DNA of 64,000 bases, from the NCBI RefSeq assembly GCF_011045215.1, contig NZ_CP049201.1. The stretch is one strand, 5' to 3'. This DNA is from Escherichia coli (GTDB taxonomy: Bacteria > Pseudomonadota > Gammaproteobacteria > Enterobacterales > Enterobacteriaceae). Under the pieces are notes generated by a model that saw only the letters and a program-made list of their open reading frames with translations, was not told the origin of the DNA and did no database searches. Shown here piece after piece: positions 21,053 through 61,061 of the stretch; position 1 is the first letter of the stretch, and each line of letters begins with the position of its first letter. Both the position numbers and the translations under genes were made by a program.

Positions 21053-21837
21053 GTAGTTATGAAACAGTATCTATAATCATGCCTACGTTTAATGCTGCAT
21101 CTTATATTTCGTATAGCATCATTTCTGTAATTGAACAATCATATAATGATTGGCATTTATATATAATAGATGATGGTTCAACTGACAATACCGCACATGA
21201 AATATCTAATTTTACCGATCTGCGAATAACATATGTAATGCTTCCTATCAATAGTGGAGTTGCAAATGCTAGAAATATAGGTATTAAAATGGCAAAAGGG
21301 AAATTTATTGCGTTTCTTGATAGTGATGACATTTGGGAAAAAGAAAAATTATCCTTGCAAATCCCTTTACTCGAAAAAGGATATGATGTAGTTTGTTCAA
21401 ATTATGCCATTTTTAAAAATGAACCAAAAAAAATAATCGGTTCTCGAACTGCACCACAACAGATCACCTATTCGCGTTTGTTACGCGGTAATTGTATCGG
21501 CAATTTAACGGGGATTTATAACCGAGAACGACTAGGTAAATGCTTACAGGAAGAATGTGGACATGAAGACTATCTAATGTGGTTACAGTTGGTAAAGCTT
21601 TCTGGTAGCGCTTATTGCATACAGAAAAATTTAGCCCGGTATCGAGTTACGGAACATTCAGTATCATCAAATAAATTAAAAGCAGCATTTTGGCAATGGA
21701 ATATATATCGTAAAAAACTCAAGCTTAATATTTTGAGCAGTATATATTACTGGTGTAATTATTCTTTTTACGCATTTATGCACATGTTAAAAATGAAGTT
21801 TCATGTGAATAAAAGTAATCTAATATATAAGAGATAA
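21049..21837 (+). CDS. Glycosyltransferase family 2, 262 aa
   Basis: ORF 21031..21837; start at ATG 21049 after GGAG; VSIIMPTFN and FLDSDD motifs. Confidence 0.8.
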   Translation: MSSYETVSIIMPTFNAASYISYSIISVIEQSYNDWHLYIIDDGSTDNTAHEISNFTDLRITYVMLPINSGVANARNIGIKMAKGKFIAFLDSDDIWEKEKLSLQIPLLEKGYDVVCSNYAIFKNEPKKIIGSRTAPQQITYSRLLRGNCIGNLTGIYNRERLGKCLQEECGHEDYLMWLQLVKLSGSAYCIQKNLARYRVTEHSVSSNKLKAAFWQWNIYRKKLKLNILSSIYYWCNYSFYAFMHMLKMKFHVNKSNLIYKR

Positions 21838-53246: not shown

Positions 53247-54140
53247 AAAGCGGTAGAAAAAGTTAAGTTCCCGGTTGATCGAATGGATGCGAATCGCTGA
53301 TCGAACTTCGATGCCAATCCGTGATCGAATAGAGCGGAATACGCATTCTGCCATTACCCACAATGCGCGGTTGAGCTTAATATCGGTGTCGATGTTGTGA
53401 ATGGCACGGGTGTGGATACGTTTTCCTTTTGCACTGCGGCCGGAAATCCCGCCTTTCAGCATATTCTCCTGGATGGTCTGATAAGTACTCCACAGGTCCT
53501 TACCGTAATCCTCCCGGCGTCGTGGCGTCAGAATGTCGGCGGTGGTGACGGGCCGATGTTCGTCACCATAACGGTAAGTCAGTGCCGCCTGTGCCAGCGC
53601 CTGGCGTGCCGGTGGCGGCAGGACCAGCGACTGCATGGCATCACGCTTCTCCTCTATCCGGTCAAACACGCCCACCACCTCGTAAGCCCCTTCAATGACT
53701 CTGTCCACCACATTTCCCCGATGCGGAACACGCACTTCCCCCAGAGACTGACCACAGACGCATCCGTTCTGACAGACGAACCTGAAGTAACCCGGCAGCA
53801 TCTGGTAGCTGGAGGTACCGTCATGGGAGTTGAGCAGAATGATTTCAGGGACATGTTCTCCGTTTATCTCTCCGGCCCGCCGCAGACGCAGCATGTGTTT
53901 TGTGTATCCCCGGCGGCCCGGGTCGCGCACACGGGTCTGGCAGGCGAAGAATGGCTGAAAGCCTTCCCGCTGCAGGCTTTCCAGTACGGTGATGGTGGGG
54001 ATGTACGTATAGTTCTGGCTTCGGGACGTGTGTTTCTCTTCCCCGAAAATCCCCGGCACATAGTGCATCAGTTCTTCGTGTGTCAGCGGACGGTCACGGC
54101 GTATCTGGTTCGCATAACCAAAACGACTGGCTAGTCGCAT
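53169..54140 (-). pseudogene. DUF932 (YafZ/YfjQ-family) gene with 3' end replaced by IS21-family terminal sequence
   Basis: ORF 53169..54140; first about 260 codons look like YafZ family (MRLASRFG...KLNRAL); after about 53356 the reading frame runs into the IS end and continues as unrelated sequence. Confidence 0.7.
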
Positions 54141-54523: not shown

Positions 54524-54595
54524 TCAGAAAGTCACATTCAGCGTGGCCTGACCGTTATAACCTTCAGCGCTGCTGCCGCTGACGCTGTGGGCATA
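54524..54595 (-). pseudogene. flu: 3'-terminal remnant of an autotransporter gene, consistent with antigen 43 (flu)
   Basis: Minus strand encodes [23 protein letters not shown]-stop, a typical autotransporter beta-barrel C-terminus ending in Phe; upstream reading frame is unrelated. Confidence 0.6.
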
Positions 54596-54754
54596 CCGGC
54601 AGGTACAAAACAGCATGGTCAGATAAAGTGGTTTTTCCCGGACATAAATGCTTCCCCTCTCTCATCCGCCAGAGAAGTATCAGTCCGTTGTGTGCAATTC
54701 CGTTCTGCATGATGAAGAGATTCAGCTGCCTTTTCGCAGACCATTAACCACTAT

Positions 54755-54800
54755 AAACGATCGATAGTAACGATCGATACCTGTTTTATCGATCGTTTTA
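54755..54800 (-). promoter_or_regulatory. Cluster of three GATC (Dam) sites in repeated AACGATCGATA motifs; resembles the agn43 phase-variation operator
   Basis: AACGATCGATA twice in direct orientation 13 bp apart plus inverted ATCGATCGTT, directly downstream of the YeeP-like GTPase gene where flu lies in CP4-44. Confidence 0.55.
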
Positions 54801-58685: not shown

Positions 58686-58892
58686 TTACGGGCGGGGCTG
58701 TGCAATACGCGCCTGCAGCCAGGCTTCCACTTCACTTTTCAGCCAGCGGGAGCTGCGGCCCAGCTTGATGGGAGCCGGAAAGGCCCCATCCCTGATGAGC
58801 CTGTAAAACCACTTATCTGTCAGGCCGGTCAGTTGAGTGATAAATGCCATGTCGACCATCTGGTCATCCATCAGTGAAACTGGGGTAGCCAT
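58686..58892 (-). CDS. alpA: AlpA-family prophage transcriptional regulator / excisionase-like protein, 68 aa
   Basis: C-terminal 68 codons of ORF 58686..59087 starting MATPVSLMDD after GGAGG; ITQLTGLTDKWFYRLIRDGAFPAPIKLGRSSRWLKSEVEAWL fits AlpA/Xis-like HTH pattern. Confidence 0.75.
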   Translation of the reverse strand: MATPVSLMDDQMVDMAFITQLTGLTDKWFYRLIRDGAFPAPIKLGRSSRWLKSEVEAWLQARIAQPRP

Positions 58893-59340
58893 GAGAATGT
58901 TCCTCCGGATGTTGTTAAACCAGCCGGTGTGGTCATGAAAACAGCGCGCCACCTTCACCGGCATAACAACCGGGGAGAAACGTAAAAAATAATCGGGAAT
59001 GTGACCGCCAGGAGATAAACGGGGAGGTTGCGGTGGCTGAGCCGTACCGGTATACCGGGTGGTTGTTGCGAAAAGATGCTTCCGCACGCACGCGCGATAA
59101 AGAGGGGATAGTTTTCGTGAGGACAGGGAGAGAAGCAGGCGTTCTGATAATTGCAGAGTTGTTTTCGGAGGTGGTTACAGTGAGTCAGCCCGTTCCTGGC
59201 GAGGAGGAGACTGATATCACCGATGGGATAAGGCTGTCTGATTGGTATTATAAATATAAGAAGTCATCAGAGAGTAACGTAAAGGATTTGCCAGAGTAAG
59301 CTAAGAGAGCAAATCTCTCCGGTAACAGAGCGCTGTGAAT

Positions 59341-59391
59341 CGTTCATGTATCAGAGTGCAGATACATGAACGCTGATGCGTAAAATCAGCA
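59341..59391. other. Two adjacent inverted repeats (perfect 12-bp stem CGTTCATGTATC/GATACATGAACG, then GCTGAT..ATCAGC)
   Basis: Seen directly; no U-tract; possible protein-binding palindrome; coordinates approximate. Confidence 0.4.
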
Positions 59392-59966
59392 GTGACACGC
59401 CAGCTCCCCCTGTGCCCATTCCTGTATAAGACATGAACTGAGCGTATTAATGCTCCTGCCCTGAGACTGAGCCGGTGAGTGAGGGGCTGAGAAATCCCTC
59501 TTGACACTGCTCTAAACCAGAAATACTTCCCCGGTTGTTGCGGTGCGTCCGGATCCCCGATAACGGAACACTAAGGCTGTATTGCGGGACACCTGGTAAG
59601 TGGCAGCCCGTAATACGTCAGGAGACGCGGGAAAAGTGAATTCCCACACGCGTTATAAACTTACCCTTGCGGAGCTGGAAGCCTTTAACTCTGCCGTTGA
59701 CAACCGGCTGGCAGAACTGACAATGAACAAACTTTACGATCGCGCGCCGGCTTCCGTCTGGAAATATGTCACCTGAATATTGAAGCAGCGCTACGATGAC
59801 TCCGGTGTTATCTGCACCGGAGGACCGGGAACATTAAGCGGTATAGCGACAACAAAGAATTCGAAATCAAAAGGGAATGGTGCCGGAGGCGTGGGCGGTA
59901 ATAGGCTGATTTTCAGGTATTACCGGCCTGTATCTGCTGAAGGGGGCTCGTATTTGTCGGGGCTGC

Positions 59967-60003
59967 GTATTCCGCTCGATTCGATCACGGATTGGCGGAA
60001 TAC
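59967..60003. repeat. Orphan fragment resembling the terminal repeat of the IS21-family element
   Basis: GTATTCCGCTCGATTCGATCACGGATTGG closely matches the reverse complement of the right end of the 50.7-53.4 kb IS (CCAATCCGTGATCGAATAGAGCGGAATAC). Confidence 0.5.
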
Positions 60004-60491
60004 CTAACTGTGATTGATTCAGGTACCATTTTGCAGGGATCCGGTGCGTTACTGTCTGGCACAACAAACGCAGCGGGTCGCTCTGCTCCGCCGATTCCTG
60101 ATAATCCCTCCCCAGTAACCTACTGCAACAGTACAAATACACTGACGCCTGAAACGGTAACCAGAATCAGCACCAGCAGTAACTCAGTAAACAGAGCAGA
60201 CGATCGGTCTTCCGGTAATAACCGGAAGGAACGACAGCGCCACAATACAGGCAACACACTGTATTATGAGTAATCGAATTACCGCAATCCCCGCATTTCT
60301 TTTTGCGTATCACGATAGCTCCCTCGCCACGCCTTATCCGTAACCGGTTTTTTACATTAAAAAAAACAACGCCGGGAATTCAATCGTCAGTCCGGAGACG
60401 ACCGTTCGGGTTATCACAGAGAGCCTGAGCAGGGGGGCTGCGCATTTTTTACGATGTGGCTATTCCGTATGAACCATACGGAGATATAACC

Positions 60492-61061
60492 ATGACCTAC
60501 AAATACAACCCCTTCTGGCAGCAACGTATTCGTGAGACGGTGCGGCACGCACTGAATGTTCATCCCCGCCTGACGGCATTGCGGGTTGACCTGCGTTTCC
60601 CGGATGTACCGGCAGCAACGGACGCAGCTGTGATATCCCGCTTCATCAATGCCCTGAAAGCCCGAATCGACGCTTACCAGAAACGTAAGCATCGGGAAGG
60701 TAAACGCGTGCATTCCACAACCCTGCATTACGTCTGGGCCCGGGAGTTTGGGGAGTGCAAAGGTAAAAAACACTATCACCTGATGCTGCTGGTCAACCGG
60801 GATACCTGGTGTCGTGCCGGTGATTACCGCGCTCCGGGATCACTGGCCGGGATGATTAAACAGGCGTGGTGCAGTGCCCTGGGAGTGGATGTCGGGTGCC
60901 ATGCCACGCTGGTGCATTTTCCGGCCTGGCCGGCGGTGTGGCTGGCGCGTAATGATGACACCGGCTTTCAGCAAGTGCTGGAACGTGCTGACTATCTGGC
61001 GAAGGAGCATACCAAAGTTCACTGCACCGGTGAGCGCAACTTTGGCTGCAGTCGTGGCTGA
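60492..61061 (+). CDS. Inovirus Gp2-like / YagK-YfjJ-family protein, 189 aa
   Basis: ORF 60456..61061; start at ATG 60492 after GGAGA; KKHYHLMLLVNRD segment recalled from YagK/YfjJ-type proteins; family assignment from memory. Confidence 0.5.
   Translation: MTYKYNPFWQQRIRETVRHALNVHPRLTALRVDLRFPDVPAATDAAVISRFINALKARIDAYQKRKHREGKRVHSTTLHYVWAREFGECKGKKHYHLMLLVNRDTWCRAGDYRAPGSLAGMIKQAWCSALGVDVGCHATLVHFPAWPAVWLARNDDTGFQQVLERADYLAKEHTKVHCTGERNFGCSRG

Follow-up and report, generated by a model that had tools for sequence, protein, structure and literature searches.

A miniature ISSso4-like element, a shortened hha-like gene and an allele-variable palindrome in a CP4-44-type island of Escherichia coli

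A 72-bp segment of Escherichia coli DNA is a complete miniature derivative of an ISSso4-like insertion sequence (IS), and its insertion is polymorphic. It was found in the window (the whole stretch of 64,000 nucleotides analysed here), where the neighbourhood of positions 59341..60003 is probably, if the explanation is taken as a whole, a mosaic and partly decayed control/accessory segment of a CP4-44-type island. Three unrelated things would lie inside this segment. We consider it probable that these are, taken together, the mini-element, a shortened hha gene and a palindrome active at the RNA level. Overall, the segment presents ordinary island decay, ordinary mobile-DNA debris and one modestly new detail.

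By genome comparison, the 2-kb region around this span is 100% identical to many E. coli chromosomes, and it is located in a CP4-44-type E. coli island, adjoining cobU. The gene map was transferred from the RefSeq annotation of the identical genome MB20 (Table 1). A sequence-only reading had labelled the span 59341..60003 as non-coding. This label has to be withdrawn: the span is not simply non-coding, because it contains an Hha/YmoA-family gene that is annotated in RefSeq and confirmed by Pfam.

Table 1. Position of the features discussed, in window coordinates
Feature	Coordinates	Strand	Basis or remark
Full-length ISSso4-like IS21-family element, istA + istB	50708..53345	+	TG...CA termini, 2,638 bp
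AlpA-family HTH gene (alpA-like gene)	58686..58892	-	RefSeq WP_000235221 in identical genomes; Pfam Phage_AlpA, E 4.9e-9
Hypothetical ORF, 88 aa	59033..59299	+	Annotated in MB20
Small hairpin GAGAG-CAAAT-CTCTC	59305..59319	+	Sequence and fold
Perfect 12-bp inverted repeat, 8-nt spacer	59341..59372		100% complementary arms
Second palindrome GCTGAT-GCGTAAA-ATCAGC, 6-bp arms	59372..59390		Abuts the first; sequence and fold
Hha/YmoA-family gene, N-terminally shortened, 58 aa, GTG start	59600..59776	+	RefSeq WP_001344112; Pfam HHA
Left target-duplication copy GGGC	59960..59963		Filled versus four diverged empty alleles
72-bp two-ended ISSso4-like derivative (TGCG...TGCA)	59964..60035	-	Inverted relative to the full copy
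Right-end terminal repeat R1	59964..59996	-	Reverse complement of IS 53313..53345, 32/33, E 3e-10; PWM 23.3 bits
9-nt centre GGAATACCT	59997..60005		Between R1 and L1
Left-end terminal repeat L1	60006..60035	-	Reverse complement of IS left end; PWM 15.7 bits
Right target-duplication copy GGGA	60036..60039		Filled versus empty alleles
Hypothetical / zinc-ribbon-type ORF, ~66 aa	60120..60316	-	Frameshifted in the window allele, intact in many relatives
Inovirus Gp2 / YagK_YfjJ_C family gene	60492..61061	+	RefSeq; Pfam YagK_YfjJ_C, E 5e-48

The 72-bp element and its relatives

The initial reading had noticed a segment of about 30 bp matching the terminal repeat of the IS21-family element located 6.6 kb away. 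This match is real and corresponds to R1 (Table 1). It had been described as an orphan IS end, possibly the footprint of an earlier IS copy or of a rearrangement; the IS origin stands, but the segment is not an orphan. The matching left end, L1, lies 9 nt further on, and an end placed at 60003 cuts in half what is a complete two-ended element, polymorphic and with relatives elsewhere. On the plus strand, the order is TGCG-(R1)-GGAATACCT-(L1)-TGCA, with both termini outward, and positions 60006..60037 share 28 of 32 nucleotides with the left end of the IS (50706..50737). Compared with the 65-bp relatives described below, the centre carries a 7-nt insertion, which creates a 9-bp internal inverted repeat (GTATTCCGC/GCGGAATAC). 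No Pfam hit was obtained in the ORFs overlapping the 72-bp element, which has no transposase coding capacity. The PWM used for these repeats was built from the IS's own eight terminal repeats and scanned over the 64-kb window. Besides the repeats of the full-length IS, one other position of the window scores comparably (21452..21477; 17.3 bits, between the scores of the two halves). This match, of sequence CACCACAACAGATCACCTATTCGCGT, is due either to chance or to an old IS21-family remnant.

The insertion polymorphism became apparent when ten diverged homologues of the region were aligned and compared with four empty alleles, also diverged. The empty alleles read ...CGTATTT(A/G)CCG-GGGA-TCCGGTG, all four diverged versions having CCGGGGATCC, while the filled alleles read ...CGTATTTGTCG-GGGC-(72 bp)-GGGA-TCCGGTG. 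The window copy thus shows an imperfect 4-bp target duplication (3/4 identical) and a net gain of 76 bp relative to the empty alleles. From 5,426 complete E. coli genomes, about 1,589 carry the filled allele; the empty, uninterrupted allele was found in at least 466 genomes.

The full-length IS of the window has intact istA and istB genes, and a repeat of about 23 bp is present five times at its left end and three times at its right end. It is flanked by a 7-bp target duplication (TTCTGCC at 50701..50707 and 53346..53352) and is inserted in the last codons of a DUF932 gene, at a site that lacks the IS in MB20. The same IS is annotated elsewhere as ISSso4 family, and full-length ISSso4-like copies are present in only 225 genomes. 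From its gene content, this copy is a putative source of transposase in trans. We also considered whether it was ISEc12 inserted in flu, as in the NCTC9008 annotation. This identification was rejected: the IS is ISSso4-like and interrupts the DUF932 gene at its 3' end, and the window has lost flu. Nearly all the Ag43/flu ORF is indeed missing from the window (about 2.82 kb relative to MB20), the deletion being located at the microhomology ATA(A)CCGGC. The GATC-rich phase-variation region (Dam/OxyR-type) upstream of the deleted flu persists as a cluster of inverted repeats with 12-bp arms; both observations concern positions 54593..54600 and 54755..54798.

The 72-bp element was then used as a query for further two-ended miniatures. 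Relatives of 64-89 bp were identified at six or more other sites, i.e. at least seven contexts including the window. At site B, which belongs to a different CP4-type island and precedes a GTPase gene, a 65-bp element with R1 fused directly to L1 is flanked by ATTACG/AGTACG (5/6), and the empty allele (AATCATTACGCATG) was found in about 1,000 genomes. The same 65-bp element occupies one IncF-plasmid site (site C) in 63 plasmids of E. coli, E. albertii, Klebsiella and Salmonella. An 89-bp form made of R1, L2 and L1 was found upstream of an inovirus-type Gp2 gene at another chromosomal locus (site D, in L015; perfect duplication TTATGT) and on a metagenome contig (site E; perfect duplication GCAGCG), the empty site of the latter being present on an E. 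coli plasmid. Finally, a 65-bp copy is carried by a metagenome contig (site F, with no target duplication), and a 64-bp copy lies in an IS3-family context (site G; perfect duplication TCATAAC). The target duplication is absent at two relatives (the plasmid site and L070). The same internal junctions recur at different sites.

Since these relatives occupy at least six sites, several of them with perfect 6-7-bp duplications, the 64-89-bp elements appear to form a small MITE-like family. It is unannotated in RefSeq ('none' under every match), and the literature, ISfinder being outside this search, yielded no description of an IS21-family, ISSso4 or ISEc12 MITE. The number of miniature copies per genome is low, and most of them are inherited with the island or the plasmid. 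In a scan of species-representative genomes (one per species), the two-ended pattern turned up only once, in a MAG contig of plasmid type, so that E. coli and its plasmids account for essentially the whole family.

In the 64-kb window, site B was found neither filled nor empty. In many metagenome contigs (L036, L037, L042, L044, L048 and others), the 72-bp element of the window's site (site A) and the 65-bp element of site B are located about 4.7 kb apart, in opposite orientation, in one island. In one contig (L112), site B contributes the left flank and the plasmid site C the right flank, which suggests a recombination between copies.

Origin and putative mobilisation of the miniatures

The mini-element is made up of the outermost IstA-recognition repeats of an ISSso4-like IS, R1 and L1, arranged head-to-head with their TG/CA termini outward. 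It probably inserted into CCG-GGGA-TCC, where the hha-like gene and the convergent small ORF meet with their 3' ends, and left the imperfect 4-bp duplication. Such miniatures would have been mobilised in trans by full-length copies, e.g. the one 6.6 kb off, as the source of the IstA transposase and of its helper IstB. The miniatures have themselves transposed, as shown by identical internal junctions recurring from site to site, together with clean duplications and with empty sites to match.

One unusual point of these elements is the presence of a single IstA repeat per end. For the IstA of IS5376, two complete repeats per end (L1-L2 or R1-R2, about 23 bp apart) are needed for in vitro integration (PMC10122671). 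The miniatures do not have two repeats at both ends: the 64-72-bp forms carry one per end, and the 89-bp form carries L1 and L2 but only R1. It seems rather unlikely that the 64-89-bp miniatures are a MITE family being transposed now or recently by IstA/IstB in trans, despite one repeat per end and a length far below the DNA persistence length. If this were true, the synapsis of IS21-family elements would be more flexible in vivo than in the in vitro picture. A neighbouring inverted repeat about 22 bp away could serve as the 'second' site, or, alternatively, the ends of two different copies or of sister chromosomes could pair.

The imperfect 4-bp duplication of the window copy, against 6-7 bp in its relatives, speaks against the miniature origin. 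It agrees with a rival view, in which a full-length ISSso4-like IS inserted at this site and then lost its interior in situ, the 72-bp element never having moved as a miniature. Moreover, its centre GGAATACCT is unlike the junction of the 65-bp relatives, and this copy occupies a single site common to diverged island lineages, for which one old event suffices. Nevertheless, once the 7-nt insertion is removed, the centre can be aligned with the R1-L1 junction of the 65-bp elements. Several sites that are unrelated to one another, with clean duplications and empty counterparts, also share identical structures of 65 bp or 89 bp, and no full-length IS was seen at this site among the hits inspected. 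A deletion in situ is therefore unlikely.

The idea of an orphan terminal repeat, left when a full-length IS was lost by excision or rearrangement, is almost certainly wrong: it is understandable from the near-perfect R1 half taken alone (32/33), the more diverged L1 half (28/32) being easily overlooked by eye, but this left-end repeat lies only 9 nt off in the correct inverted orientation and ends in TGCA, its match at 60006..60035 is absent from the empty alleles, elements built in the same two-ended way occupy six or more other sites, several of them with target duplications, and DDE-type IS21-family elements are not known to leave such footprints on excision. We thus retain a miniature that arrived already two-ended as the preferred explanation.

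Genes and hairpins of the island segment

The gene located between the palindrome and the mini-element is, by its Pfam match, a real Hha-family gene, though N-terminally shortened. Its product matches the HHA profile (PF05321) with 64.1 bits for a cut-off of 25 (E 1.5e-17) over positions 14-57 of 57. At 58 aa and with profile positions 1-13 absent, it falls short of the full-length four-helix protein of about 70 aa; the C-terminal core ending in SVWK is retained. The GTG start is found directly 3' of an in-frame TAA. Relatives encode proteins of 70-74 aa; compared with them, two 18-bp segments close to the 5' end are missing from the window allele. A promoter scan revealed no convincing promoter for this gene. 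Downstream, the minus-strand ORF of about 66 aa is transcribed towards the hha-like gene, and the 3' ends of the two enclose the mini-element.

On the other side, the 88-aa ORF has no match in Pfam, and its 5' part is interrupted by a stop or a frameshift in three relatives (L004, L006 and L011). Its 3' part corresponds to a possible 39-aa ORF (59180..59299) with a GGAGG ribosome binding site. The core of this shorter ORF and its RBS are intact in the relatives except L004 and L011, in which a 2-nt deletion breaks the frame. This ORF is a candidate for a small protein. Among the alleles in which this segment is present (type I), the nucleotide sequence of 59140..59420, which covers the hairpin cluster and the last two-thirds of the 88-aa ORF, is conserved to a far greater extent than its flanks. 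In two other relatives (L005 and L012), an insertion of about 199 bp lies between 7-bp direct repeats (CTGAGAG), at the position equivalent to about 59486 of the window. This insertion may be another small mobile element.

The perfect 12-bp palindrome with an 8-nt spacer, and the second, shorter palindrome that follows it, had both been pointed out from the sequence alone and were recovered exactly on re-inspection. The first consists of a left arm CGTTCATGTATC (59341..59352), a spacer AGAGTGCA and a right arm GATACATGAACG (59361..59372), and begins 42 nt past the stop of the 88-aa ORF. The window contains 6 perfect inverted repeats (arms of at least 12 nt, spacer of at most 20 nt), for 0.07 expected from block shuffles. 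The palindrome is therefore beyond chance, yet it is one among several such structures. The 105-nt segment containing the palindromes has a fold z-score of about -3 on either strand. No Rho-independent terminator was called at the palindrome on either strand and there is no U-tract, the sequence 3' of the stems being AGTGACACG. An Rfam 15 scan of 57.5-61.5 kb returned nothing relevant, with a chance sR3 match outside the span as the sole hit (15.5 bits, E=1).

We then compared the alleles of this palindrome. The exact 70-mer surrounding it was found in 848 of the 2,816 E. coli records carrying the region (about 30%), and the remaining 1,968 records have 69-bp alleles forming a stepwise series. 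The window allele, shared by L003, has the perfect stem and a predicted hairpin of -16.7 kcal/mol. In the allele of L017, one nucleotide is deleted, and a G at 59340 makes up for it by lengthening the stem (-16.3 kcal/mol); that of L018 has an additional G>A mismatch (-10.5 kcal/mol); and in that of L019 a further mismatch at the loop-closing pair leads to the loss of the predicted hairpin. In about 70% of the alleles, the stem is thus disrupted with no compensation on the other arm, and the hairpin is weakened or lost. In the type II islands (L005, L008, L009, L010 and L012), neither the palindrome nor a structural equivalent is present at this place, where the sequence is unrelated; these islands nonetheless carry orthologous alpA-like, hha and gp2-like genes. 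From this allele comparison, we conclude that the palindrome is the lineage-specific perfect version of a quasi-palindrome that is degraded in most alleles. Two other origins were rejected. A single template switch perfecting an imperfect form does not agree with the intermediate of L017, which shows a stepwise series. A degenerate IS21-type terminal repeat had been considered because the repeat search gave 72% identity over 29 nt to L1; however, the arms score only 4.6 bits on the PWM of the IS repeats, and about 0.1% of the window positions attain such a score.

As to what the palindrome does, together with the two neighbouring small hairpins it could form an RNA-level cluster of 3' stem-loops after the small ORF, serving as a barrier or a stabiliser but not as a canonical terminator. 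Most likely, we infer, its role would lie at the RNA level and would be at most that of a 3' stem-loop. Even such a role would be weakly constrained, because the hairpin is weakened or lost in about 70% of the alleles.

Absence of any function is a real possibility: the palindrome might be a neutral quasi-palindrome that by chance became perfect in one allele lineage. The uncompensated, stepwise loss of folding energy described above agrees with this possibility, as do the lack of the palindrome in type II islands and the visible decay of the surrounding genes. On the other hand, three consecutive hairpins right after an ORF stop, with a z-score of about -3, look organised. The two flanking stems are invariant across alleles that differ by about 10% elsewhere: the second palindrome does not vary at all among relatives, and in the small upstream hairpin the stem is unchanged in all the relatives shown, the sole change affecting the loop (C in the window, T in the relatives). 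In addition, the G at 59340 in L017 lengthens the stem, offsets the bulge and holds the energy at -16.3 kcal/mol.

A protein-binding site at the palindrome had also been put forward, for a regulator or a recombinase. In its fullest form, the palindrome would be a dyad operator or recombination site for the AlpA-like protein, another island regulator or a recombinase, controlling the divergent alpA and small-ORF-hha units. In favour of this view, the 12-bp dyad is perfect, which chance hardly accounts for, and it is located some 450 bp upstream of the alpA-like gene; in addition, one class of relatives has another copy of its right-arm 11-mer (GATACATGAAC) about 740 bp further downstream. But the dyad is perfect in only 848 of 2,816 records, the others having a 1-nt deletion and up to two mismatches with no compensation. 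Moreover, type II islands keep orthologous alpA-like, hha and gp2-like genes without it, it is unlike IstA-type repeats, and it lies downstream of an ORF and not at a recognisable promoter. An arm length of 12 bp combined with a spacer of 8 bp is also atypical for AlpA/MerR-like excisionase-type proteins. An operator or recombination site is therefore quite improbable. More generally, a conserved protein-binding role is unsupported, because the palindrome is perfect in about 30% of alleles, its disruptions are uncompensated and a second island type has no palindrome.

The recurrences of GATACATGAAC are located at position 1706 in L003, 1684 in L004, 1590 in L006, 1531 in L007, 1799 in L009 and 1589 in L011, just beyond the stop of the small minus-strand ORF. 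The window sequence is diverged there.

Significance and comparison with known systems

The 72-bp element and its 64-89-bp relatives, being unannotated, can be mistaken for IS scars and can seed mis-assemblies. They can also mediate recombination between islands and IncF plasmids, one chimeric combination of flanks having been seen. With one transposase-binding repeat per end, they offer a natural test case for the minimal ends required in IS21-family transposition, for which a structural definition has recently become available. As to the palindrome and the truncated hha-like gene, they are mainly a record of the ongoing decay of CP4-type islands. Taken together, these results bring no major change to current understanding.

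The hairpin cluster resembles intrinsic terminators and REP-type 3' stabiliser hairpins in that stable stem-loops are located just 3' of an ORF. It differs from them by a palindrome with no U-tract and an AT-rich stem, by the lack of a terminator call and of a REP consensus, and by the non-conservation of the perfect stem. The hha-like product shares with the H-NS co-regulators of the Hha/YmoA family (Hha, Cnu/YdgT) an HHA match well above threshold and the conserved C-terminal motif, whereas its N-terminus is divergent as well as shortened in comparison with the longer island paralogues.

With ISSso4 and other IS21-family elements, the mini-element shares TG...CA termini, and its R1 and L1 are respectively 97% and about 88% identical to those of the full-length copy of the window. 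Where target duplications are present, they also fall within the 4-8 bp range of the IS21 family. It differs by the absence of istA and istB, by the retention of one of five left and one of three right repeats, and by its size (72 bp vs. 2,638 bp). In the reactive junction of IS21, the tandem (IS21)2, right-end and left-end sequences are likewise side by side. In that case, however, the outer termini abut, a few bp apart, while in the mini-element the inner sides abut and the termini point outward, as in a deleted single element. Bacterial MITEs such as MITEEc1, the IS630-related ERIC element of about 123 bp, are, like the miniatures, short, gene-less and bounded by the inverted repeats of a transposase-encoding IS, with presence/absence polymorphism, target duplications (for the miniatures, at several sites), an intergenic location and a potential to form hairpins. 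The miniatures are distinguished from them by their IS21 derivation and their length of 64-89 bp, by the roughly seven sites seen instead of tens per genome, and by the fact that they mostly ride on islands and plasmids.
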